Source: Octopus vulgaris (Eukaryota). From it: a DNA stretch of 64,000 bases. Positions 6,979 to 60,477 of this stretch are shown here, in pieces (position 1 is the first letter of the stretch; each line of letters starts with the position of its first letter). Location of the stretch: positions 75,640,001 through 75,704,000 of the forward strand of contig OX597827.1 of NCBI GenBank assembly GCA_951406725.2. Reading direction: 5' to 3'. Below the pieces are notes generated by a model. The model was not told where the DNA came from. It searched no databases and saw only the letters and a list, made by a program, of their open reading frames with translations. The translations under genes and the position numbers were made by a program.

Positions 6979-7653
6979 AGGGTCATCTCATAAATAATGC
7001 GTTTTTTTTATACTTCTTTTCGTTTTTCAAAATTAAGATAAACAAAGTCCTTTTTGAATCTAAAATATACTCTCCTCCATTTTCTACAATGCTCTTCCAT
7101 CCATCTGGCAGACTCGCAAGGACCCTCTTCCAAAATTCACATATCCGCGATGAAAAATTCTCCTCCAATACTATTCTGACCATGTCTACAGCATTCATAT
7201 GATAATCAGATGGGGGAATGTCTGGTGAATATGGAGAGAGAGGCATCATTTCCCATTCAAACAGCTCCAACTTTTGGAATGTTATCCTCACTGTATGTGA
7301 CCGAGTATGATCCTGATGGAAGAACACCTTTTGCCTTGAAACCAAAGATGGTCGTTTTTCTTCTTGCACTGACTCAAGCTGCTCACAGTAAATCTCCTTT
7401 GTTATTGTTTGGTTTTGGTTTAAAAGTTGAAAGTGGACTAAACATTTTATATCCCACCAAACAGGTAGCAACACCTTTATGTAGGTGAAAACCTTCTTTA
7501 ACCTGAGATGCACTTAAAAGCTTGCACTACGAAGAAGGACAAGGTAAAATTACTACCTGCTTTCATAGCAAGTTGCTGCGGGTAGTTTATCCAGTCCCCC
7601 TCCAACTTTTAGTTCATGCAGTTGAAAAAACCACATTATTTGTGGGATGACTA
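6979..7653 (-). mobile_element. Internally deleted mariner (Tc1/mariner) transposon with both TIRs
   Basis: TIRs GGGTCATCTCATAAATAATGCG and CCACATTATTTGTGGGATGAC. ORF 6983-7513 has mariner motifs VWWD, FHQDH (for HDNA) and PYSPDIPPSDYH. Confidence 0.9.
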
Positions 7654-7693: not shown

Positions 7694-7924
7694 TATTTCT
7701 TTACTACCCACAAGGGGCTAAACATAGAGGGGAGAAACAAGGACAGACAAAGGGATTAAGTCGATTACATAGACCCCAGTGCGAAACTGGTACTTTATTT
7801 ATCGACCCAGAAAGGATGAAAGGCAAAGTCGACCTCGGCGGAATTTGAACTCAGAACGTAACGGCAGACGAAAAACAGCTACGCATTTCGCCCGGCATGC
7901 TAACATTTCTGCCAGCTCGCCGCC
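7694..7924 (-). mobile_element. SINE family B, full length
   Basis: tRNA-like head GGCGGCGAGCTGGCAGAA with B-box GTTCAAATTCC, core GCCTTTCATCCTTTC and AAAGAAATA tail. Confidence 0.9.
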
Positions 7925-8019
7925 TTATATATATGCTTATATATGTGTGTGTGCATGTGTTCATATATGTATATGCATGTTTGCGTGATGCATGATTGCT
8001 CCTAAGCAGAAAGACCCCC

Positions 8020-10123
8020 CCTCCCACCTAGCATAGATTAGTCAATAGTAACTTTAGACTCCAGGCCAGAACGATACCAAGACATAAAGCAATCTGGAAA
8101 AGAAAGATTTGGAAGATTAAGGACCCTTCATATGATCAGAGATTTAGGAACATCCTAATTCAGAAATTCGATGAAAGGGAGGAGGAGGAGGAGCTAAAGA
8201 CTTGTGAGAAAGAGGGCAACTGGGAATTGTTGAGGGGACAGTTTGCTGAGTGCCACAGACCCAATCTGTGGCTGATGCAAAGTTCTATCCAGACCTAAGG
8301 TAACGCGGTGGAGGAACAATGCAGTAGACAGGGCCATTAGAGTTAAGAAACAGGTCTGGAAGAATGGGGGTAATAGGGCACTGTATCAGATTGCCAGAAG
8401 GGATGCTGGGAGACAAGTATATCTAGCCAAGATAGATAGGGAGAAGCAGAAAAGAAGAAGTTTGCCTATGTTCAGCGATTTGAGGACCAAAGAACTGAAG
8501 TCTTTTGGTTTGCGAGACAGTATGTGAGAGAAAATCATATCATAGAGAGAAATGTGTCCGTATGGATGATGGTCCACTTGCATGTAATGATTCTGCAAAG
8601 AAAGAGGCTCAGAAGCACTATTTTGAAAGATTTCTGAATGTGGAGAATGAATGGGAGGAGGAGAGTCTGCAAAATGTTGACCCATTTGAGGGGCCAGGTA
8701 GCCAAATCGATAAAGCAATTAAGGACATGAAGACAGGGAAAGCCCCTCATCCCCTCAGGAATCACTACTGAGCTGCTTAAAATATCTGGCGGTGAGGTTT
8801 ATGGTCTAGTCACCCATATTGTAAATCAAATAGTTCTCAAAGGAGTCATACCCATTGACTGGTGTAGCAGCACTATAGTCAACTGCTACAAAGGTAAAGG
8901 TGATGCCTTAGAAAGAAATAATTACAGATGTATCAAATTGCTAGATCAGGTGATGAAAGTTATGGAGAGAGTCATAGCCCAACTAATTAGGGAAAGAATT
9001 TGCTTAGATGAGATGCAGTTTGGTTTTGTGCCAGAGAGAGGCACCACTGATACTATATTTCTAGTGAGGCAGTGGAGGGACCAGCTATCCGAATATACAG
9101 CTCCCTGGTAGATAAAGCAATTAAAGGTATGAAGCCAGGAAAAGCCCCCAGCTGTACAGGCCCTTTACAGAGAGGCCGTTAGTAAGGTTAGGATTGGCAA
9201 TGAGTATAGTGAAGAATTCTGGGGAGAAGTAGGCGTCCACCAAGGATCATTCCTCCGTCCCCAGGCAATAACAGAGAAATTCAAAACAGGTTGCCCCTGG
9301 GAGCTCCTCTATGCTGGTCCTCTTAGCAGAATCACTACCAGAACTAGAGAAGAAATTTCAGGTGTGAAAGCAAGGTTTAGAATCAAAAGGCCTTAGAGTC
9401 AATGTAGCAAAGACCAAAATTCTAGTAAGTAGGAAGGTGAACTCATCACACACCCCCTCAGGAGAAATGTTGGACATAAGAAGCATTGGATGTGGCATGC
9501 AGGAGAGACGTTTGCACTAGTATGGTCATGTACTATGGATGGATGAGGAGAGATGTGTGAAGAAATGCCACTCCCAAACAGTTGAAGGAATCCAGAGTAG
9601 AGGTAGACATGGGATGAGGTGGTCAAGCAGAGGCAATGATGAAAGACTGAGACCTCTGGAGATATACTGTGACTGCAAAGACCCGGCAAATAAAGTGAGT
9701 TTATGGCTCACAGGACGGCATGCTGTGCTTACCTTGGATCGTAGGGCAACCTGCTGTGCTTGAGAAGACCTATTGAGTCAAGTACATCATCAAAATATGG
9801 AAATTGTAGTTGTGATACCCATGCCGGTGGCACGTAAAAGGCACCATCCGAACATGGCCGATGCCAGTGCCACCTTGACGGTGGCACATAAAAAGCAACA
9901 ACTGATCATAGACGTTTCCAGCCTCCTCTGTCCCCTGTGCCGGTGGCACGTAAAAAGCACCCACTACACTCATGGAGTGGTTGGCATTAGGAAGGGCATC
10001 CAGCTGTAGAAACACTGCCAGATTAGACTGGAGCCTGGTGCAGCCTCCTGGTTTCCCAGACCCCGATCGAACCGTCCAACCCATGCTAGCATGGAAAACG
10101 GATGTTAAACAATGATGATGATG
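8020..10123 (+). mobile_element. RTE-clade LINE, degenerate and rearranged, with 3' UTR and (GAT)n tail
   Basis: Fragments encode IDKAIKDMKTGKAP, YKGKGDALE, YRCIKLLD, MQFGF and GCPWELLYA. Ends CCAACCCATGCTAGCATGG...TTAAACAATGATGATG. Many stops and frameshifts. Confidence 0.85.
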
Positions 10124-11750: not shown

Positions 11751-12173
11751 ATATGTATATGTGTGTGTTTATATATATATATATATACACATGTGTGTAT
11801 GTGCTTGTGTGTATACAGACATGCACATTCTGTATTATGGGAACAGGACTAGTTCTAACTTCACTAAAGTTGAACAAGTTACCATTTTCCCTAATTAGAT
11901 CAACATGTTTGCTCAAGAGCTTATAACCTCACCTCAATTATTTTTGATCCAGAGTCCACTGAAGCTTACCCAGCTCACTCAACTCCATTATTGAGCCTGT
12001 CCTCCTCACTTGGCCCATTTCTCCCAAAAATGATTGGCATCTGGAATTCCCTCCCTGCAGCCATTAACTATCCTCTTGTTGAAGACCATTGTGTCGATCT
12101 CACCAGTCTTTGAGGACTTGCAAAGACTTTGTGCAGAACCCTCTTCACCAAAGCAAAAAATATTTAAAAATTG

Positions 12174-12322
12174 GGAGTGGCTGTGTGGTAAGTAGCTTGC
12201 TAACCAGCCACATGGTTCCGGGTTCAGTCCCACTGCGTGTCTTCTGTTATAGCCTCGGGCCGACCAATGCCTTGTGAGTGGATATGGTAGACGGAAACTG
12301 AAAGAAGCCTGTCATATATATG

Positions 12323-12363
<41 letters not shown>

Positions 12364-12585
12364 GTGTGTATATGTTTGTGTGTCTGTGTTTGTCCCCCTA
12401 GCATTGCTTGACAACCAATGCTGGTGTGTTTACGTCCCCGTCACTTAGCGGTTCGGCAAAAGAGACCGATAGAATAAGTACTGGGCTTACAAAGAATAAG
12501 TCCCGGGATCGATTTGCTCGACTAAAAGCAGTGCTCCAGCATGGCCGCAGTCAAATGACTGAAACAAGTAAAAGAGTAAAAGAAT
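12174..12585 (+). mobile_element. SINE family A
   Basis: GGAGTGGCTGTGTGGTAAG (A-box-like), GGTTCAGTCCC (B-box-like), internal microsatellite and family tail. Confidence 0.9.
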
Positions 12586-12806
12586 ATGCAATATTGTGTG
12601 TTATGTTAACACCTTATACTGAAACGTTGTTGGTATACTATCACATCTGTAGAGAAATTAGTTTTCTTTTATCTTTTAGTCAAGAGGAAAGCATGCTCTG
12701 ATTCCATATAAAGCCTGCAAGATTGGTAAATGGGAGAGAGTTATCCTAAAACTGGAGATCTGGGTCAAATGCTTGCAACAGGGTAGATTCTACTGAAGGT
12801 AAGCAA

Positions 12807-13036
12807 GGCGGCGAGCTGACAGAATCGTTAGCACGCCGGGCGAAATGCGTGGCCGTATTTCATCTGCCGTTACGTTCTGAGTTCAAATTCCGCCGAGGTC
12901 GACTTTGCCTTTCATCCTTTCGGGGTCGATAAATTAAGTACCAGTTACGCACTGGGGTCGATGTAATCGATTAAAACCCTTTGTCTGTCCTTGTTTGTCC
13001 CCTCTGTGTTTAGCCCCTTGTGGGCAATAAAGAAAT
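12807..13036 (+). mobile_element. SINE family B, full length; the empty site is preserved at 18115-18204
   Basis: Full head, core and tail. The two flanks are contiguous in the copy at 18115-18204, with an AAG duplication at the junction. Confidence 0.92.
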
Positions 13037-13279
13037 AAGATGCCAGGAGATGGTGTTAAGCCAAGCAATACGCTGATGGTTAGAGATAAAACATAAGCAA
13101 GGAAAAGGTTCTGAAGTGACAGCAGGTCTAGGTTGTGGATTGATGGCAAGTGGGGGTTAAAGTGGATTATGTTACAATAGATGTAGTTCTGAAGAAGAAA
13201 GTTCCAGAAGCTGGGATGAAGCTTCATATTTTCTCTGTAAAAGACACTGGATCTACTTTATAAAAGAAGAAATGGTGAA

Positions 13280-13339
13280 AGAAAACAAACAACACAAACA
13301 TTGTCTCAGAAATCTGAAGAGAAACTGAAGAATTTTATT
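13280..13339 (-). terminator. Probable polyadenylation signal of the ZNF gene
   Basis: Minus-strand AATAAA at 13339-13334 followed by a GU-rich tract (TGTTTGTGTTGTTTGTTTTC, 13300-13281), about 270 nt after the stop codon. Confidence 0.55.
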
Positions 13340-13605
13340 GAAGATGCGGTCACTTGTAAGCATTATGTACTAAACTGTACTAATGTTGGTATGCATGTGT
13401 TCTAATACCATTTGGAGACATTAAAAAAAAAATCAACAACATCAGGGAGTAATATTGGCGGTCTGGCTATTTCACGCAGAAGACATATACAAGTTAAGCA
13501 GACACACACACACAAAAAACAAACTCTTACAAATGAAGAAGTCTGTCCAATTGAATAAAGAAGAAAAAATGAATGAAGAAAGGTTTCTTCCATTATATTA
13601 GACAA

Positions 13606-15960
13606 CTATTTTATACCACTCGTTTCTGGATTCTGATTTGTAATGTTCTTTGAAGGAGCGTGCATAGCTTGTAAGTTATTCCACGGCAATTGTTTGCCTT
13701 GTTTTACTCCGCATGAATATGAACCTGCCATATTGGGCCAAGTGGAGGTGAGTAGTGGTGGCATGGGGAATCCGCGGGACCAAACATAATTGTTGTTCTC
13801 CCAACTCTGAGGCAGGCTGCTGTGGAGATAGGGAGATGTTGGTGCATGTGTTGGGGAAATGTTTGACACCTGAGGTCGTACAGCATGAGGCAGAACTTGA
13901 GGTAAGTCTCCGTGTGGCTGTGAAACAATACTCTGTTGGTGGTTGTGTTGCTGCAGAAGACGATCAGTGACCTTCATACTGGACTTCTGTACATGTGATG
14001 ACGATGACGGCATTTTGTTGGAATGGTGTGTTCCTTGGTGTGACTGTGCTGTAGCTGGGGGAGACGAATTATATGACATCGGAGATTTATCATGTCCAGA
14101 GTCCTTCATCATTGTTGCTGGGGGTGAAGCAATATGAGGTTGTTGCTTTGAACCTGAAAAAACCTCCCCATCACAGTTTCGATTCCCACAGTCATCATTA
14201 TTATTAGCGAGTCTGTGATTCTTGCCGCCCATATTAGAATTAACCCCTCCAGTTTCTCTATTCAGTGCTGATGCCATGGGGCACTTGTGGTTATTCAGAT
14301 TAGCTTTCTGTGCAAAATTCTTACCACACTGACCACAGGCAAATGGTTTTTCGCCAGTATGAGTACGTAGATGAGTCTTCAGGTTGCCTTGCTGAGAAAA
14401 TTTCTCATGACAAAATTCACATTCAAATGGTTTCTCACCTGTGTGAGTCCGCTCGTGAGTCTTGAGAAAAAATTGATTACAAAATGCTTTTTTGCAGAAA
14501 CTGCAGAAATACAAATCACCAGAGTGTAACCGTTTATGATCATTGAGATTGTTTCGTTGTGAGAAAGCTTTATCACAGATGTCACAGATGAACGGCCTCT
14601 CTCCAGTATGAATTCTTAAATGTGTTTTTAAGTTGCCCCTTTGGGCAAAAGTCTTATTACAAAATTGACAATCGTAGGGTTTGTCCCCTGTGTGCACCCT
14701 CTCGTGGTTTCGAAGAAAGAATTCATTGCAGAAGCCTTTCTTACAGAAGGTACAGTAAAATAACTCACCTGTGTGAATGCGCTCATGAATCTTCAAGAAG
14801 AACTGATTGCAGAAAGCTTTCTTACAATACTGACAGAAAAACAAATTGCCAGTATGTAATCTGTTGTGATCATTTAAGCTGTTTCTTTGAGAGAACGCTT
14901 TGCCACATACTTCGCAGATAAATGGTTTTTCACCTGTGTGGATCCTCAGGTGTGTTCGGAAATTCCCTCGCTGAGCAAACAGTTTGCCACAGTAGTCACA
15001 AGTGAATGGTTTTTCACCGGTATGAGATCTTTCGTGGTTCTCAAGGAAAAACTGGTTGCAGAATGCTCTCTTGCAAAACTTACAAAAAAACATATTACCA
15101 GTGTGGAAGCGTTTGTGATCGTTGAGGCTGTTTCGTTGCGAAAACGCTTTAGAACATATATCACAGGTGAATGGTTTGTCTCCGGAATGGATACGGAGAT
15201 GCAGCTTTAAATTGCCAGCTTGACTGAATGCTTTATTGCATATGGTGCATTGAAATGGTTTCTCTCCAGTGTGTACACGCTGGTGATTTCGTAGATGGAT
15301 CTGTTGGGCAAAGCTTTTGTTGCATATATTACATGAATATGGTTTCTCTCCAAGATGTACTTGTTCATGAACTCTGAGTGCAAACTGCTTTGTAAAAACT
15401 TTCTTGCAGAAAGCACACTCAAATATAGTTTGGTTGTGGCCAGGCAGCATCATGGTAGATGCTGGCATAGTTCGAGGGGTTGTAATCATGGTGGGTTGTG
15501 GGGACACTGATGTAAAAGCAGGGTGTGGCTGTGGCTGTAGTTGGGCTGCTTGAGGAGATTCGTGGGATGCATGGCTACTGTTGCTATCCAAAGCCAGGGA
15601 GTCATTACGAGATATGCAAGTGGAATCCTCAATAGGCTGTTGAGGGGCTGGAGGGACCATGTGATTATCTTGATTGTTATTGATAGGGATCTGATTTTGT
15701 GAAGCATTTGAGAAATCTTCTGATGCTACAGTAGCTGCAAATTCTTGTGCCACAGCACAATCTGTGCTGCTAGCTTCTGGGGTCTCCATTGGGTTACCTT
15801 CTACAGGTGGAGAACTAGAATGTTGCTGAAATGATTTACCAGGTAGACTGCTTTTATCATTGTTTTTCAAGTGGTTCATCTGATAGAGGGGTTGGTCATA
15901 AATGGCAGTTTGGCTTGCAGCTGTGTATGGTGTTTGCACCGGATACATATCTTCACTCAC
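13606..15960 (-). CDS. C2H2 zinc-finger protein, 784 aa, single coding exon; 13 C2H2 fingers plus a terminal C2HC finger (14281-15423); low-complexity Q/S/P/N-rich termini
   Basis: Uninterrupted ORF with tandem CxxC-x12-HxxxH units and TGEKP-type linkers. No KRAB/BTB/SET domain visible. Confidence 0.96.
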   Translation of the reverse strand: MSEDMYPVQTPYTAASQTAIYDQPLYQMNHLKNNDKSSLPGKSFQQHSSSPPVEGNPMETPEASSTDCAVAQEFAATVASEDFSNASQNQIPINNNQDNHMVPPAPQQPIEDSTCISRNDSLALDSNSSHASHESPQAAQLQPQPHPAFTSVSPQPTMITTPRTMPASTMMLPGHNQTIFECAFCKKVFTKQFALRVHEQVHLGEKPYSCNICNKSFAQQIHLRNHQRVHTGEKPFQCTICNKAFSQAGNLKLHLRIHSGDKPFTCDICSKAFSQRNSLNDHKRFHTGNMFFCKFCKRAFCNQFFLENHERSHTGEKPFTCDYCGKLFAQRGNFRTHLRIHTGEKPFICEVCGKAFSQRNSLNDHNRLHTGNLFFCQYCKKAFCNQFFLKIHERIHTGELFYCTFCKKGFCNEFFLRNHERVHTGDKPYDCQFCNKTFAQRGNLKTHLRIHTGERPFICDICDKAFSQRNNLNDHKRLHSGDLYFCSFCKKAFCNQFFLKTHERTHTGEKPFECEFCHEKFSQQGNLKTHLRTHTGEKPFACGQCGKNFAQKANLNNHKCPMASALNRETGGVNSNMGGKNHRLANNNDDCGNRNCDGEVFSGSKQQPHIASPPATMMKDSGHDKSPMSYNSSPPATAQSHQGTHHSNKMPSSSSHVQKSSMKVTDRLLQQHNHQQSIVSQPHGDLPQVLPHAVRPQVSNISPTHAPTSPYLHSSLPQSWENNNYVWSRGFPMPPLLTSTWPNMAGSYSCGVKQGKQLPWNNLQAMHAPSKNITNQNPETSGIK

Positions 15961-16756
15961 TCACACTCTTTCACGTTTTCTCAACCTTGAGCTTTTATAT
16001 ATTTGTCTGTGTATATAATATATACATATATATATATGTATGTGTGTGTAGATGTATGCTTTTACTATATATAAAGATGATATATGTGCAAGGTTTGACT
16101 GAGTGTCTATAAATGTGTGTTTCCTTATATACATATAGATGATGAGAGTGATGTTTACAATGTGTGCATGTATTTTAACGTTCGTTGCACTTTAAATAGT
16201 TTACTCAATAAATAAACTCCCTCAAATACAAAGGCAGATATGAAAGACAAGGTTGTCAGAATAGACAACACTGGTATATCACATACACATGTGTCATGCA
16301 GGATGGGTTTTTGGCAGAAATATTGCCCCGTTTCACACTCGCTATTTGAATACCACAAAATGGATCGACCAGTTCTCAGACAAAAACTTTCATAGCAAAA
16401 TCAAATGATAATAATAATAATGGTTATTGTACTAATAGCAACAATAACAATGACTGTGATGCTTTCACTAAGATGTTCGCTAGTTCCTCTGAATGGTGTC
16501 CATTACTTTTCATTAGAAATCTCACAAGAAGTAAGATGCTATTTCAGCAGTTTCAGACGTGACTGATGAGGCCAGTTCCGGTTGACTTAATACGAAGGCA
16601 GACAGTCGATGGTCGAACTGACGAAATGGCCAGATGTACATCACTTGGTTGTTTGTTGACCATCACTTATGAGTGACAACATGGTTTCTGTCCTTGGTTC
16701 TCTTCCGCTTCAGCAAAACGAAGAAGCCCCGATGGGCTGGAGGCACGGTTCTAACA
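15961..16756 (-). other. Probable 5' UTR portion of the ZNF coding exon
   Basis: Minus-strand polypyrimidine acceptor TTTTCCTTTTCTGTTCTTTTTGACAG (AG at 16758-16757). Largely non-repetitive sequence runs from there to the ATG. Confidence 0.5.
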
Positions 16757-16836
16757 CTGTCAAAAAGAACAGAAAAGGAAAACAATGAGATAGGTAGAAA
16801 GTTAAGGATTACGAAGGAAAAGATTTATGTCTTGTC

Positions 16837-17063
16837 TTAACCCTTTAGCATTCAGATTATTCTATCAAAAATAATGCATATTGATTCCCATTGATTTGAA
16901 TTAATCATGCATTATCTCATATCTTCAAAATATTTATGGTGTAATTACTTAATGTAGAATAACATTGTAGGGTAGGTGTGAGAGCCTGGATCTGGTCAGT
17001 TTGAACATAAAACAGATTAGCTATTTTGGCCGGATATGGCCGGTTTAAATACTAATGGGTTAA
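16837..17063 (+). mobile_element. piggyBac-like MITE family P1
   Basis: TTAA-CCCTTTAGCATT...AATACTAATGGG-TTAA: TTAA target duplication with CCC/GGG termini. Confidence 0.8.
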
Positions 17064-17387
17064 AATACAACACAATGGTACCAAGAAAGTTTCTTCGGTC
17101 ATTAGTAGTCTCCATATAGTCCTTAATCAGATCGACATTATAACCAAATTTACGTCAACAAAACTCCCACTTGACTTTAACACTTTTAACACCAACCCAT
17201 CCAAACACACCATTGCTTAACTCCATTTAACCAATTGCCACTTAAACCACCTGTATCCATCTTAAAATTAAAGTATTCATATTTAGTTGGGAGGCAAGAA
17301 TTCCATCGTAGATTTATGTAAGAACCTTTCGCTAAGTTTTATACTCTAATGAACCATCCAAAACTTTGTAAAATAGGGATGGAATAA

Positions 17388-17435
<48 letters not shown>

Positions 17436-17438
<3 letters not shown>

Positions 17439-17677
17439 GTGGCACGTAAAAAGCACCATCTGATCATGGCCGTTTGCCAGCCTCGTCTGGCACCTGTGCC
17501 AGTGGCACGTAAAAAGTACCCAATACACTCACGGAGTGGTTGCCGTTAGGAAGGGCATCCAGCCATAGAAACATTGCCAGATCAGACTGGGCCTGGTGCA
17601 GCCTCCTGGCTTCCCAGACCCCAGTTGAACCATCCAACCCATGGAAAGCGGACGCTAAACAATGATGATGATGATGA
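17436..17677 (+). mobile_element. RTE 3' UTR fragment
   Basis: Hairpin units, GTTAGGAAGGGCATCCAGC core and (GAT)n tail. Confidence 0.85.
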
Positions 17678-18052
17678 TATGTGTGTGTGTGAGAGAGAGA
17701 GGGGGAGAGAGAAGAAGGTTGTTAAAGTGATAGCAGTAGAGAAGACACAGTGGGACAGCAGTAGGCACTGAGCATCTCTTTGACTCAGACAGCGCATCTA
17801 GGGACATTATCAATTGTGTCCTTCCATTTTTAAGACAGGGTGTGATTTAACAGAGATTTGGTAAGCTATATGTAACACCACACAAAACCTCTTTCATTGA
17901 CATGCAGGACACCAGTGGTAGCGTTGATGTGTGTGTGTTTATGGTTAAGGTGGGAATGGTTACTGATAACATGGTCACTGGTTCAAATTTGGGAAACCCT
18001 TGCATTGTAAGAATTTAGAACCTTCAAGAGATATGATCTTTTTTTTTCTTAA

Positions 18053-18469
18053 TAGATAAAGCTATAAATAATAACATGAAGAATATAGTGTTAAAAAAAA
18101 TCACTTGGATGGAAAAAACTGGAGATCTGGGTCAAATGCTTGCAACAGGGTAGATTCTACTGAAGGTAACCAAGATGCCAGGAGATGGTGTTAAGCCAAG
18201 CAATGGATCTGTCATAGATGGATCTGTTGGGCAAAGCTTTTGTTGCATATATTACATGAATATGGTTTCCCTCCAAGATGTACTTGTTCATGAACTCTGA
18301 GTGCAAACTGCTTTGTAAAAACTTTCTTGCAGAAAGCACACTCAAATATAGTTTGGTTGTGGCCAGGCAGCATCATGGTAGATGCCGGCATAGTTCGAGT
18401 TAACTTCTTTTCATCCAAGGGGTTTTTTTAATGCAATATTCAACATGCTATTATTTGTAGTTTTATCTA
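18053..18469. repeat. Old inverted repeat (arms ~18053-18120 and ~18400-18469) enclosing a templated insert
   Basis: Left arm TAGATAAAGCTATAAATAATAACATGAAGAATAT...CTTGGATGGAAA matches the reverse complement of the right arm TAGATAAAACTACAAATAATAGCATGTTGAATAT...CTTGGATGAAAA. Confidence 0.8.
18215..18399 (-). pseudogene. 185-bp duplicated fragment of the ZNF CDS (finger 1 and part of finger 2)
   Basis: Identical to 15292-15476 except 2 substitutions seen by eye. Confidence 0.95.
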
Positions 18470-18694
18470 CTTTGAGTTTTACTGCTAAAAAAAAACAAAT
18501 AACATCTCATTATGTTTGAAAATGGCCAGCAGCTTCTCAGAGCTGAGCTATCTAAAACAGACTGAAAGGGAATTTTAGGCCTTGTAGGGTAGTGTTGGCT
18601 ATATGATGAAGGCCCACATTCCAGTAGGGAGCTTGATAGTTTTAGCTGTTGGTGTTCTTTGTTTTTGTTTTGCTTTTCAGCATCTACATGAGTG

Positions 18695-19415
18695 TAAGCG
18701 TCCTGAGAGAAATGTTGGGCATAAGAAGCATTGGATGCAGCGTGCAGGAGAGACGATTGCGTTGGTACGGTCATGTACTACTGATGGACGAGTAGAGATG
18801 TGTGAAGAAGTGCCACTCCCAAACTGTTGAAGGAATCCAGGGTAGAGGTAGACCCAGGAAGACATGGGATGAGGGGGTCAAGCATGACCTTCGTACTTTG
18901 AGCCTCACAGAGGCTATGACAAAAGACTGAGACCTCTGGAGATATGCTGTGACTTCGAAGACCCAACAAATGAAGTGAGTTCATGGCTCGCAGGACGGCC
19001 TGCTGTGCTAACCTTGCATCATAGAGTGACCTGCTGTTCTTGAGGAGACCTGTTGAGTCAAGTTCGTCAACATCAAAAAATTCGAATGGAAATTGTACTT
19101 AAGACACCCATGCCAGTGACACGTAAAAAGCACCGTTCGAGCGTGGCAGTTACTAGCGTCCATGTCAGTGACACGTAAAAGCACCAACCAATCGTGGTCG
19201 TTTGCCAGCCTGCTCTGGCTCCTGTGCCGGTGGCACATAAAAAGCACCCACTACACTTACGGAGTGGTTGGCGTTAGGAAGGGCATCCAGCTGTAGAAAC
19301 ACTGCCAAATCAGACTGGAGCCTGGTGCAGCCTCCATGGCTTACCAGACCCCGGTCAAACCGTCCAACCCATGCTAGCATGGAAAACGGACGTTAAATGA
19401 TAATGATGATGATGA
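18695..19415 (+). mobile_element. RTE LINE 3' fragment
   Basis: Region equivalent to LRWYGHV...RGRPRKTW, followed by hairpin-unit UTR and (GAT)n. Confidence 0.85.
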
Positions 19416-19884
19416 CATGAGTGTATACTAAACTAGAATAATCAGAAATGGAAGAGCAACACTCATGACTCTTTTTAGGGTTTTCAAAACTGGAGGGAGC
19501 AAGAGAGGACATTATCCTCTGACTAGAGGCTATCAAGGCTAACCCATGCTGTAGCAGAGGAAGTACCCTTAACTAAATCCCCTCAAAATTTTTTAACCAT
19601 TTCAAAACTTGATTGAAAGCTTCAGACAGTGTTTTCTAGTTTAGTAAACACTCATGTAGATGTTGAAAAGTGAATCCCTTGCCACTCTGTTTCAGGTGTA
19701 AAATCTTAGGGCAACATGCTCCATGCTACAAATATTTTGTTAATTCAGCTATAGATCTGTTCCAACAGAGATGACTGAGGCCATCTAACAATACACTCCC
19801 TACTCAAAAACATTCAACTATCAAGTGAAAGTGGTGCCTATTGTCCATAGGGTAGACTGAGGCTAGCACGTGAAAGAGGTAGTG

Positions 19885-20040
19885 GAGGATTCGATGAGGA
19901 GGACTCAGTTGTTTGATCCACTGAACTGCTTATTCCACGTAAGTGGCTGAGCAATCCACAGATATGTGTTCCCTTAACATAACTCTCAAGTAGAGTTGAT
20001 ATGACACTTGTGTATGACAAGGCTGTGACTTTTGAAATAC
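19885..20040 (+). mobile_element. Degenerate SINE family C tail 1 fragment (same orientation as the copy at 29128, i.e. element on minus)
   Basis: AAGTGGCTGAGCAATCCACAGATATGTGTTCCCTTAACAT aligns with 2714-2752 and 29205-29240. Confidence 0.55.
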
Positions 20041-20431
20041 TGACAGGATCCACCCAAAAGGCTTCTGTCTCACTGATTTCACTCTCAACTCAAGGTTATA
20101 AAAACTGACATTTGTCCAGAATGCCTTACAGTGGGATCAAACCCAGGACCTCAGAGTTACAAGGCAAACTTTCTAACCATTCAGCAAAACTTCACCTACA
20201 AGAGCAGAATACAGTAACAATAAAGAAAAAATAGAGAGTAAATGGAATAAAGAGGGACTAAGATTAATGAAGGAACTAATTGCAAATAGATTTAAGCATA
20301 CAAAATGTTTTTCCTTATGATTTACATTATCCTTGCCCTCATTTTTCCAAGCTGGCATGGGTTGTTTAGATATCAAAGAACCTTAACATTTGGTGTAGTC
20401 CTTGGCCATCTGGCACACACAACGACAAAAC

Positions 20432-20659
20432 TTAACCCTTTAGTGTTTAGACCAGCCATATCCGGCCAAAATATTCTACCTATTTTATGTTCAAACTAGT
20501 CAGATATGGTCATTCATAGCTATCTTATTGTGCCATTTTAAAAACAAACAATCACATTATTGAAATCTCAAAGCCATGAAATGATGCAAGATTAATTTTA
20601 CATGGTGTGAATACATAAACATTACATTTGACAGAATAATCTGAATGCTAAAGGGTTAA
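20432..20659 (-). mobile_element. piggyBac-like MITE family P1, inverted relative to 16837-17063
   Basis: TTAACCCTTTAG...CTAAAGGGTTAA. The internal sequence is a diverged reverse complement of the 16837 copy. Confidence 0.8.
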
Positions 20660-22019
20660 ACATTTAATTTTATTTTAACATGGTTTTCACATCTGAATGG
20701 ACTTTTTATTACAAACCACTTTACATGAACTTTACACTTCCACAGTGAATGAGGACTATGGCTACAGCATCCACACTCCTCTATTGCAGCCAATTGTCAG
20801 ACATGCTCAGCATTCATGAGGGACGCAGCAAACTCAGTCAGTGCTGGCTCAACCCACCCTAGGTGAATGCCATTACAAGTAAGTACAACCATTTTACATT
20901 GTAGACTTGGTATATTTTATAGTGTCACTGGCACACGTGATAGGACAAAAGAGTCCTTTTTATCCTCTATCAGTTTTTACGGTTTTTCAGAGCTGTAGCA
21001 GAGAAAAAACCCTGAAATTGTGTTTTATATAGACATTGTAATCATCTGCAGCAAATCTTTATCAACATCTCTCTTTCTATAGATATTTGTATGCGTGTGT
21101 GTGTGTTAGGATGCATGGGACTATGTGTGATGGAAAGCACTTGTGGACCTGGATAGGTTGCCTGTATAGTGCAGTGTCTGAGCCCATGCCTTCTCTCATT
21201 ATTTTTTTTTGACTTGGTAGAAACCCTGGTGATAGCAGTGTCTACTAATTGATGGGACCCAATGATGAACTATGAAACATTAAAACACCTGAAGATAGCC
21301 ATTGGGTAATAGATGACCACCTCCTAAAATCTTTCAAACACAGCAATAACTAACAGATGCGGTTTAGGGAGAGACATAAGGTAGAAAATCAGGTGATAGA
21401 AGAGATTCCTTACATATGAAGGCACACAAAGAATTGTTTGTGTACATCTCCTGGGTACAACAGTGAGTGTTAATATGATGGATACTAGTGGTGTCATCAT
21501 AGGAGACAAAATAACAAATTACTTTCTTTCAAGTAATTTTACCTCAGTGATGTATTTTCTAACTTTTTTGTAGTTGTTGTTGCTTAGGTCTTCCTGTTTT
21601 AAGACAGTAAGGCATGCTTTATGAGAGATTTAGCTGCTATTTTTAATGGATTGAATAAACATATACAGCAATCTGGGAACTTCTTCAAATTTGAAACTAT
21701 TAATGAATGCTCTTTAGAGACAAAGTTTTTAAAGACATATAAAACAAGATGGTTTGAGCCTTAAAAAACAGTTGTTTGATATAAGTTTACATACTTAAGG
21801 ATTTGTAAAATTAAAGTTGTGTCTAACTTTAGGGGATTATTTGGAGTAGCTAAAGGATTTCCTACTTTTATACTTTTATTATTGACAGTTTGTGCAGACA
21901 AATTCAATGATTCTGTTTTTCTACAAAAGCATAGAGCTTTACAAAGAAGCAACAGCAGAGACGTCGAACTAAAGGATCAAATTAAGAAAGTTTGCAGAAA
22001 GACTTAAAATAAGAAGGAA

Positions 22020-23222
22020 TTTAGCTATGATAGGATGCAGGTTGGATTTGTGCCAAACTACATCTACAAGAGAGTTCTTAGCCAAGAGTAAGCCTCTATA
22101 CTGAGTATTCATTGACCTGGAGAAGATCTTTGACAGAGTTCCACACTATGTCTGGTAGTTCTTAAGAAAACTGAGTGTAGATGAACGACTTGTAAGAGAC
22201 ATGCAAGCTATGCACAGGGAATAGGGGTTCTGTCAGGAAAATGAAAGTTAGCAATGAGTTCAGATAAATATCCCCTACTATTCATTGTAGTCCTCCAAGC
22301 CATAACTGAAGAATTCAAGGCTGGCTGCCTGTGGGAAATTTTTATATACTAAAGAACTTGTTCTGAGAGCCAAGTATGTAAAAGAATTGAGGAAGAGCTC
22401 TGAACATAAAGCAGAGCATAGAATCAAGAGGATTAAAAGAACTGGATTTATGCAATATGCAGTAAAGCTATAGGTAAGAATGTGAACTATGGGGGCACAT
22501 TACAAGTACACTGACAGAGAAGAGGAACTTTGTATGTAGCAGACACACAAGCATAATTAATAGTAGAAGCACCATGAAATAAATCCTTTCAAATGCTCAG
22601 AAAGATCTCTCATAATAACTAATAGCCCATTACCTAGATGAACTAATTAGCAATAGAGATAGAGTTTTGGTATTCCAAAAGCATGGTAGCCAGAGAAAGA
22701 AAGTAGTGGGAAAGTTCAGAAAGCTATTATCTCTTCTATCACCAGAAGGATTCTCTCCATAAGTAAGGACAGACTATGCAATATTCAGTAGTGAAATATG
22801 GGTCTTGGATGAAGTAGATGTGCAGAGGCTAGAAAGAAATGAAGCAAGTAAGCTCCATTGGATATGTTTTGTTTGTGTGCGAAAATGATGGAGCAGATAT
22901 GATCTAACAGAAAGCCTGGTTATAACAGGAATCAGCTGTGGAGTGCAAGAGAGAAGGTTATGCTAGTATGGACAGGTAACACAAATAAAGGATGACAAAT
23001 GGGTAAAGAAATGCCAAACAATCAAAGTGAAAGGAATCTGCAGAAGAGAAAGATCAAAGAAATTATGGAAAGAAGTGGTAAAGACTGATCGTAGGAATCT
23101 AAACTTTACAAAGCAAATGACAAAGGATTAAAGATTAAAACAAGCGTGAGGCTGAGTAGGAGAAGAATCATCCAACCCATGTAAGCATGGATAAAGAAGC
23201 ATAAAATAATAATCACGATGAT
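22020..23222 (+). mobile_element. Old, highly degenerate RTE LINE
   Basis: Traces of LQE-FLAK, FIDLEKIFDRVP, EEFKAGCLW and RRL-WYG. Ends TCCAACCCATGTAAGCATGG. Confidence 0.75.
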
Positions 23223-23465
23223 AACTAAAGATTAGACGTCTTACAACATGTACCAACCAAACTTACTGACACACCAAAGTCTCTTTGGATTTTATATATA
23301 CATGTATGTCAGTGACAATATATATGTAACTACAAAAATCAAAGCCATATAACAGAAGCAGGGTACATGTAAAAAGCATGTATCTTCTTCCAAGAAGTGT
23401 TTCATTAAAATGAAAGATATACACTGAAACTGGATTTGTTATTTACATTCACGAAGGAAACCCAT

Positions 23466-23518
<53 letters not shown>

Positions 23519-24042
23519 ATATATTTGTGTGTTGTGAATATCATGGTTAGTGCTCCAAAATTTAAGAGAATTTAAAATCAAGTCGGTTTAATACTGAGAT
23601 GACACTCAACACAGTTAAAAACAAAGATAAACATTACAAATTCTAGAAAGCAAAGAGGAAAACCATTGTTTGTCTGTGTTGACATATATTACAAGAAAGT
23701 TCGTAAAATGAATAATTTCAGAGTGACATGACAAGAGATTTTTGACAGTTTAAAACAGGGTCTTCCCTAAGATGCACGTTCATATATACAGACAGAATGA
23801 TAGATATAAATGCAGATATATATATATATATGCACAGCCTTTTTTCAGGGGGGAACAAACTGTAAAACAAAGTTGTAAACATAAACATGCATACACTTAG
23901 ACACTCGCGTTAATTTGCTGATGTTGGCAAAAAATATATATATTTTTAATACCTAACTACAACTGATATATTACTTTACAGATGCAGACAAATACACGCA
24001 CATAAACGTATGTATGCATATAATGAGAAAATACACACACAC

Positions 24043-24093
<51 letters not shown>

Positions 24094-24142
24094 ACGCACA
24101 TGTACACGTATAAACATATGTACATTACATGTATATTTGTGT

Positions 24143-24185
<43 letters not shown>

Positions 24186-24424
24186 CACACACACATACAT
24201 ACAAACATATATATATGAAATTCTAAGGTGAGTACAGTGAATTACCTATATTATCGCATACATTACATCACACACACACACATTCAATATAAAATCCATT
24301 AAACCTACGCACACACATTATATACATCAATATATGTACACAGAAACACGGATGTCTGAAAGGGGACACACCTTCATATATAAACAGACAGACGTTGTGT
24401 AGGAGATGCAAGGGTTAACCTTAC

Positions 24425-24640
24425 CCGCTCTTGTCATCCATCCAACCTGTATTCCACCCGCTAACCCCACTAGCCTCCACCCTCGACTGAAAGCCATGCG
24501 ACACATAGACGTCTGTCTGTAGAACTGCTCGTCCGTCCGTCTGTTGTTACGCGTGCCCGGCCGCCGAGATTGATGGTGCCTGCGACTAGGTGTGAACAGG
24601 GTGGAGAAGAAGGGAGGAGGAAGAGGAGGAGGTCGAGGAG
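24425..24640 (-). promoter_or_regulatory. CpG-rich candidate first (non-coding) exon and promoter of the ZNF gene
   Basis: CpG-dense unique sequence ending in a minus-strand donor GCGG|GTAAGG (GT at 24424-24423). Confidence 0.45.
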
Positions 24641-59317: not shown

Positions 59318-59548
59318 GGGCAGTGAGCTGGCAGAAACGTTAGCACGCCGGGCGAAATGCGTAGCCGTATTTCGTCTGCTGTTACGCTCTAAGTTCAAAT
59401 TCCGCCAAGGTCGACTTTGCCTTTCATCCTTCGGGGTCGATAAATTAAGTACCAGCTACGCACTGGGGTCGATATAATCGACTTAATCCGTCTGTCTGTC
59501 CTTGTTTGTCCCCTCTGTGTTTAGCCCCTTGTGGGTAATAAAGAAATA
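59318..59548 (+). mobile_element. SINE family B, full length
   Basis: Matches 12807-13036. Confidence 0.9.
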
Positions 59549-59816
59549 AGTATACATTTTAGTGTCCCTTTGTTCAGCTCCTTGCCACAACTAGGAACCT
59601 TAAAATCTGGGAATGGTATCCGTGATAGACTGACATTCTATCCCAGGGAAAATTTTCTGTTTTATCTGATTTATGCTATAAAACTGGAGCTTAGCACCAG
59701 CCACTGATAATAGTCCTTTAGGATGTATAAGATGTTAGGTAAGACTTTCTCATGGCCAAGAAAGATAACCCCCAGCAGATGCATATTGTACATGATGAGT
59801 TTTTTATGCCCTAGCC

Positions 59817-60061: not shown

Positions 60062-60477
60062 TTCTAGTCAAATGAGGTAGGCAGCACCCATAATAATTTT
60101 TTTCAGGGTCATGGGTGCTTTTGACAGATAGAAGGAAGCTAATGATTCTCAGTATGAAGACCTGGGCTGAATTCTTGCAACAGAGTGAATCCCACGAAAG
60201 CCAGACAAGGGCCAGTTAGTGGTGTTAAACTGGGTGACATATTAAGACTACCACTCATATAATGTGTTTTCTCTTCAGCATGCTTCTACAGTTTTTTTCT
60301 CACGAGATGGTTAGATGACACTTGCTCTAAGTGTCAAGACCATAAAATAAACCACTTAAACACAAAGCCATGCCTGCACCCATTTAAGTCTGCATTGAGC
60401 TCTTACACACTTCAACTATCAAGAGGATTTTAAAGAGAACCAGAGTCCAAATCCAGTGGTAATGGTAGACCTAATAT

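Follow-up and report, generated by a model that had tools for sequence, protein, structure and literature searches.

A two-piece copy of a zinc-finger locus between the arms of an old fold-back repeat in Octopus vulgaris, a candidate scar of break repair

Introduction

How does part of a gene's own coding DNA come to lie, almost unchanged, between the inverted arms of a fold-back repeat next to that gene, and does the copy move or serve any purpose there? We address this question for a locus of Octopus vulgaris within a window of 64,000 nt (contig OX597827.1), this window being the whole stretch of DNA that was analysed and the one to which all positions below refer. The original prediction took the locus for an old palindrome that had broken at its centre and had been repaired by serial template switching.

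The copied pieces and the arms were measured by BLASTN and pairwise alignment within the 64-kb window, and positions 17725-18705 were compared with the assembled contigs of four of the 24 listed public runs (X1, X2, X12 and X10; organism C was left out), for which 32 of 1043 pieces were listed. X1, X2 and X12 are DNA-like runs, and X10 is an RNA run by guess only. The source sample may be X1 or X2. X12, from organism D, is independent of it, as its contigs differ from the window at 5 of 448 nt.

Results and Discussion

The insert and its donors

The host gene is represented by a C2H2 zinc-finger ORF of 780 aa on the minus strand (13606-15948), which has 13 fingers by strict pattern and belongs to Pfam zf-C2H2. 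Its protein has an exact match in the protein collection, and the 90% cluster to which it belongs also contains “zinc finger protein 665-like” from Argonauta hians. The fold-back that bears the insert lies 2.2 kb upstream of the host start codon. A minus-strand scan for splice motifs found an acceptor at 16756 as well as donors at 24372-25258, which together make it likely that the fold-back sits inside an intron of the host 5' UTR; the intronic position originally proposed is thus plausible as a reading of splice motifs. The four strong donor motifs clustered at 24372-25258 lie in a less repetitive stretch and likely mark 5'-UTR exons of the zinc-finger gene. At the other end of the gene, the sole AATAAA between 12500 and the host stop is found at 13334.

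Between the arms of the fold-back lie 285 nt composed of two pieces of this neighbouring locus. The first (18115-18204, plus strand) derives from downstream DNA, donor A (12748-13069, plus strand), and lacks the SINE that now interrupts that donor. Here 18115-18174 corresponds to 12748-12807 (59 of 60 identical) and 18172-18204 to 13037-13069 (33 of 33), with an AAG overlap of 3 nt and one mismatch in 90 overall. The second piece (18212-18399, minus strand) is coding DNA, and pairwise alignment places its source, donor B, within the coding exon (15289-15476, minus strand; 185 of 188 identical). Both copies had been recognised beforehand, with one mismatch for 12748-13069 without the SINE and two (at 18270 and 18386) for 18215-18399 against 15292-15476; the alignments agree and extend the coding match to 18212/15289, with three mismatches in 188. 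Across 278 sites the insert shows 4 differences from its donors; the parents are at 98-99% identity. The left part of donor A is itself a remnant of another repeat family and is multicopy, with 41, 50 and 43 contigs of X1, X2 and X12 differing at 18149. A 69% copy of this left part (12748-12807) is also present in the window at 60155-60228.

The donors are 2.7 and 5.0 kb from the insert. Coordinates, the signal at 13334 and the ends of the skipped stretch bear out the earlier description of them as more than 2 kb apart, one past the likely poly(A) site, and joined without GT-AG: read on the strand of the gene, the skipped 13070-15291 is not bounded by GT..AG. Both pieces keep the order and strand of their source, so that the insert equals 12748-15476 minus 2219 nt and minus the SINE. 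Because of this collinearity, one 2.7-kb segment lacking 2.2 kb explains the insert as well as two donors do; the two source pieces first described are real, but a single gapped segment fits them equally.

Integrity and copy number of the locus

We asked of the public contigs whether the junctions are genuine. The left one is crossed by an X12 contig (17878-18201; one other letter and one gap, with 237 and 87 nt on the two sides). Contigs of X1 and X2 cross the right one (18356-18582; one and zero other letters, with sides of 44 and 183 nt each), as does an X12 contig (18356-18478; three other letters, sides of 44 and 79 nt). The middle junction is crossed by an X2 contig (18175-18244) with no other letters, which reaches 30 nt past each edge of the filler described below, one below the 31-letter rule. 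Unspanned junctions had been named in advance as the sign of misassembly, and all three are crossed. With the outer junctions covered by contigs from three organisms and the middle junction by one contig, misassembly is very unlikely. No single contig spans the whole stretch among the 32 of 1043 pieces listed, and this is what would speak for an assembly artefact; set against the junction contigs in organisms A, B and D, the fact that X12 is not the source sample, and an insert that has its own substitutions and no SINE, its probability is negligible. The insert is older than the split of organisms A, B and D.

The contigs also bear on the number of copies. The junction contigs pass through the arm into the flank and do not stop at the arm edge, as for a single locus, and the X12 depths are alike (4.2 and 6.66, with 7.25 for the donor contig). 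These two observations point to a single copy, and the capture looks single-copy. In X1, the collapsed insert-plus-donor contig has a depth of 485 vs 150 for the junction contig, which is 3.2-fold where two is expected. This excess on the coding piece, together with arms that come from a multicopy inverted-repeat family, would suit a mobile Pack element, that is, capture linked to transposition of an active element or a loaded element that has moved and has other copies. We regard this as quite improbable: the two arms have diverged by about 20% and stand well apart from other members of the family, whereas insert and donors differ by 1.4%, the donors lie within 5 kb, the junction contigs run into the flanks of the same locus, and the X12 depths do not differ in this way. 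A second flank for the insert was not found among the 32 of 1043 pieces listed, which is a weak negative.

Some variants in the contigs deserve a separate mention. One X1 contig (depth 45) carries four extra bases at 18234. An apparent filler-free allele, with a joint from 18204 to 18215 in X2 and X12, was rejected: the X12 contig is the donor locus (13036-15423) by coordinate arithmetic, and the X2 contig is read likewise. Collapsed contigs of X1 and X2 have a C at 18270; this was considered as a donor allele, and bubble merging is the likely explanation instead.

The fold-back arms

The left arm extends over 18013-18114 (core 18053-18118, outer end uncertain) and the right arm, from the same dispersed, MITE-like repeat, over 18400-18523 (core 18405-18469). 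The cores 18053-18118 and 18405-18469 are 80.3% alike over 66 nt, in keeping with the figure of about 80% first estimated by eye, and a gapped extension reaches about 18013 and 18523. Their score of 60 compares with a maximum of 27 in 500 dinucleotide shuffles; of 313 control positions in the window, 22 exceeded this score, and several of the highest lie in AT-microsatellite tracts. Relative to other copies, the left arm has a small deletion just left of 18053, and loose ends there resemble the outer part of the right arm.

The run contigs show that the arms belong to a dispersed repeat family. A different base at 18087 occurs in 33, 39 and 28 contigs of X1, X2 and X12, and a shared other base at 18457 in 60, 75 and 53. 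Contigs less than 90% alike number 232 of 328, 254 of 378 and 171 of 253, respectively, totals that include two other repeats of the stretch. Other copies hold both arms around a different centre: 11 of the 14 listed joints lead from left arm to right arm on one strand, although the sides of these joints are only 18-34 nt long and AT-rich, which weakens this observation. All three DNA-like runs share two short native centres, of 8 and 38-40 letters, and the end of the longer of these resembles 18400-18423 by eye. The base that distinguishes the arms (18074/18448) is absent from the listed differences, so both arm types seem family-wide. Alternatively, the arms could be two independent, opposite insertions of one small repeat, or a host palindrome, with the capture falling between them by chance. 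The short sides of the joints and the failure to find a terminal duplication would allow for this, but the joints that run from left to right arm in other contigs, the native centres common to three runs, and the two arm types that seem shared by the family make it highly improbable.

The label “MITE-like” is descriptive, and membership in any superfamily is putative. Around the element, the search for a target-site duplication returned just 4-mer chance candidates. No second arm copy was found in the window at E <1 beyond short chance matches, and Rfam on 12000-20000 gave six matches, all far below the gathering score and on AT microsatellites, with none on the insert or arms. It had been argued at the outset that single-copy arms without a target-site duplication would count against capture by a transposon and would leave the reading as a repair scar; the arms proved to be multicopy, and no target-site duplication was found. 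The “old palindrome” of that account is indeed old, with arms about 20% apart, but it is a copy of a dispersed repeat and not private to this locus. No orthologous empty element was seen, as all three of the DNA-like runs carry at least one junction.

Further repeats surround the fold-back. Diverged genomic copies match the right flank (18508-18671; one or two contigs per run), and the fold-back may reach further right; another repeat covers 17791-17856. A small element whose ends read TTAA-CCC...GGG-TTAA, and which we take to be piggyBac-like, is present in two inverted copies (72%) at 16830-17063 and 20432-20659. Decayed copies (76%) of a transposase-like frame, presumably mariner-like, are located at 6980-7513 and 33953-34521, and fragments at 8731-9111, 34253-35615 and 37033-37935 resemble LINE endonuclease and reverse transcriptase frames by eye. 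An exact scan of metagenomes with the left-arm core returned two near-identical loci (L001 and L002, 1499-1526) with 28 nt in a bacterial open frame, which we presume to be a DNA polymerase III alpha subunit; we dismissed this match as chance.

Junctions and mechanism

The middle junction (18203-18214, plus strand) holds the most detailed record of how the pieces were joined. A 10-nt filler re-copying the adjacent sequence had been proposed here, and such a copy is present, with a refined parse. The 10-mer ATGGATCTGT occurs in the 64 kb only at 15295, 18203 and 18218. Donor A ends in AT, which is also 15295-15296; the copy then runs to 15304, where a T is reused and copying restarts at 15289. 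Aligned this way, the filler appears better parsed as a copy of 15295-15304 entered through the 2-nt AT, followed by a slip back to 15289, and 18214 would be a later CpG-type G-to-A change. Copying first landed at one point and later took in bases that lie upstream of it, which means that the filler was made with the template in reach and not by a later tandem duplication. The filler is thus templated from the immediate flank, with AT microhomology at entry and T at exit, and this direct-repeat pattern of templated insertion points to end joining of the polymerase-theta type, with the enzyme suggested by the pattern. At the left junction, AAAA is common to arm and donor, a weak match that lies within an A run, and the right junction has no provable microhomology, the element's own centre being lost.

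Polymerase theta is generally conserved in animals, octopus presumably included. With modest confidence, we favour a single break-repair event inside a long-dead inverted-repeat element as the origin of the 285-nt insert, its order of steps, enzyme and neutrality being our reconstruction. A MITE-like element with imperfect inverted arms would have inserted upstream of the coding exon and decayed. It would later have broken near its centre, losing its own spacer. Repair synthesis may have started on neighbouring DNA in cis, from AAAA (12748) for the left end and from 15476 for the right. Tracts of about 90 and 188 nt could then have been copied towards each other, or one strand could have jumped 2.2 kb forward; the sequence fits both. 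Theta-type end joining would have completed the repair by annealing at AT, extending 8 nt, releasing, and re-annealing at T seven bases back, leaving the filler. The product would have been immobile afterwards and likely neutral. The initial idea of a central break followed by serial template switching therefore survives in part: what stands is a repair scar whose filler is templated and whose pieces were copied in cis, with DNA the most likely template, but two-ended copying or a later deletion fits too.

The main rival is this later deletion, in which the full 12748-15476 (about 2.5 kb without the SINE) was copied first and a later break removed 2.2 kb and left the filler. Such a history would account for pieces that keep source order and strand; in the parts of the literature drawn on here, a filler templated from the flank is the usual theta footprint at a deletion (PMC8654963), and captures of up to 3,585 bp are recorded (PMC8277862). 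It requires two rare events, however, and in the same partial account captures are mostly short, with a median of 224 bp (PMC8277862). No long form was found among the listed pieces and joints of the three DNA-like runs, which proves little. On balance we rate the two-step history as rather unlikely.

A template of RNA has also to be considered, since both pieces are in the gene's sense and order and one is exon sequence. A read-through or long-3'-UTR transcript would have been reverse-copied into the break, with a template jump of the reverse transcriptase across the skip. Of the marks of a retrocopy, namely a splice junction, poly(A) tail or target-site duplication, none was found at the insert, the skip has no GT-AG, and donor A lies 265-590 nt beyond the sole AATAAA (13334; range 12500 to the stop). 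In X10, a 2700-nt contig would begin at 13348 if ungapped, which would leave donor A outside the main message and agrees with a DNA template, though as a very weak hint from one study. Taken together, this evidence makes the RNA route improbable.

Age of the capture and the SINE

The few differences between insert and donors (4/278), compared with arms 20% apart, suggest that the capture took place long after the element inserted. The SINE (12808-13036, plus strand), which has AAG on both sides and is about 92% identical to copies at 7694-7926 and 59319-59550, offers a second marker. The alignment with copies of the donor-A repeat family reaches 18174, and 18170 is not among the differences listed; the insert therefore retains the base typical of the family, and the AAG on either side of the SINE is a repeated stretch of host sequence. 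In X12, the donor contig starts at 13036 by coordinate arithmetic, and the SINE is probably present in that donor also.

Relative to the two window copies, the SINE has 8 private differences in 229 nt, just one of them at a CpG, and some may be subfamily marks. Against the 4/278 between insert and donors, this gives a Fisher p of 0.15, and a Poisson p of 0.02 if 4/278 is taken as exact. That the SINE arrived after the capture, as first supposed, is the simplest reading and a likely one, but with this Fisher value it is not established; a SINE skipped across the AAG repeat and a template allele without the SINE are the less probable alternatives.

Expression and possible use of the insert

The copied coding piece corresponds to host residues about 158-219, which cover finger 1 entirely and finger 2 for the most part, with the frame intact and a linker E changed to G. 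It holds a 59-codon ORF from an ATG at 18391, which stops at the filler. ORF products of 59 and 54 residues were absent from the protein collection, with none at E 1e-15 among proteins of 32-104 residues, a result with no bearing on function. When the gene-strand RNA of 18010-18525 was folded, the arms paired (-126.3 kcal/mol, z = -5.3, with 0 of 100 shuffles as stable). The right arm contains an acceptor-like motif (18484) and the left arm a weak donor (18105). The former was set aside as a special feature, as it is one of 11 such motifs in the 9.5 kb of 15950-25500.

At 18270, X10 has the gene's base only (two contigs including the 2700-nt one, depth 88.5/88.5); contigs drop rare variants, and silence of the insert is not implied. 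No high-identity contig over 18115-18214 is listed for X10. We also discarded the idea that the insert pairs with the gene's own exon as dsRNA: both are on the same strand, and a copy in sense orientation does not pair with the exon.

Nothing in these data suggests that the insert is used. A very improbable candidate is a 5'-UTR cassette exon of 380 nt, with a polypyrimidine-AG acceptor at 18484 (first exon base, right arm) and its donor at 18105 (left arm), which would carry the 59-codon uORF and whose inclusion would be set by the arm hairpin and A-to-I editing. If true, a dead transposon would have turned coding DNA of its host gene into a self-regulating switch. The original prediction of a route for finger shuffling is not borne out: the capture looks single-copy and is in sense, with no sign of later movement or of exon use, and X10 has the gene's base. 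Within the host ORF, an internal tandem repeat of ~330 nt (four fingers), 14434-14781 vs 14764-15111 at 69% alike, represents the ordinary route of finger gain.

Comparison with known captures

The comparisons in this section draw on parts of the papers cited. In a survey of animals, Tan et al. 2021 described 370 Pack-TIRs, mostly single-copy and formed by gap filling in old elements (PMC8277862). Their inserts have a median of 224 bp, 56.9% lie within 15 kb of the parent, and the median microhomology is 2 bp (PMC8277862). The resemblance to Pack-transposon capture noted originally holds in this sense, as the octopus locus works like the single-copy Pack-TIRs: a short host fragment (285 nt) lies between decayed inverted arms, with the break near the middle, a cis parent within 5 kb, microhomology at one outer junction, and captured exon sequence inside the host gene's region (PMC8277862). 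It is unlike them in being made of two pieces, with 2.2 kb missing between them and a templated filler at the join, and in an element that has no assigned consensus and for which no target-site duplication was found (PMC8277862).

Of the properties that define the group, the locus has an internal sequence within 100-5000 bp, a parent of >=90% identity, flanks that are one repeated inverted-arm element (with the caveat of the short joint sides), a close cis parent, a single copy (from run contigs; the X1 depth excess stands), and microhomology at a breakpoint. The survey's filter takes an insert-to-parent length of 80-120% and so excludes large internal gaps by design (PMC8277862); the octopus insert, at 285 vs 2729 nt for the full span, falls outside this ratio and enters it only if the pieces are taken singly. 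By analogy, we consider the locus a probable single-copy Pack-TIR, with its element unclassified and no empty orthologue seen. In the 12 supplementary files of the survey, “octopus” has 0 matches, and the row for the sea hare gives 0 Pack-TIRs (PMC8277862).

Plant Pack-MULEs are, in the same source, often multicopy, with distinct target-site duplications and distant parents (PMC8277862). The octopus insert shares with them a gene fragment of about 300 bp between inverted arms, but it looks single-copy, its parent is next door, and MULE features were not found (PMC8277862). Several loaded copies with distinct target-site duplications, which mark multicopy Pack-TIRs and Pack-MULEs, were not seen among the 32 of 1043 pieces listed.

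For the filler, the closest models come from flies and worms. When the fly uses alternative end joining, the fillers are frequently imperfect repeats of 5-8 nt templated by the adjoining sequence, and long ones become fewer in theta mutants (PMC2895639); in the worm, duplications with junctions of this type arise when theta joins SDSA intermediates that have failed (PMC8654963). The octopus junction agrees in its short filler from a few bases off the junction, its direct repeat, and its 1-2-nt microhomology in and out (PMC2895639, PMC8654963). It differs in that the fly and worm breaks were experimental, with mostly homologous-position repair, while in the octopus the long tracts were copied from non-homologous DNA close by and the enzyme is suggested by pattern (PMC2895639, PMC8654963). 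A literature search, with most subscription papers outside its scope, returned no octopus case of such capture.

Conclusions

Capture of gene fragments by break repair is already known in animals, and the octopus locus is of this known kind, to which it adds a two-piece form. On its own, it provides no new mechanism and no evidence for zinc-finger shuffling by capture. It is a clean, young, break-driven capture of a gene fragment in a cephalopod, a group without a match in the supplements of the animal survey that were drawn on here. This suggests that a count of captures of this sort is feasible in octopus genomes and that the theta-type scar is readable there.
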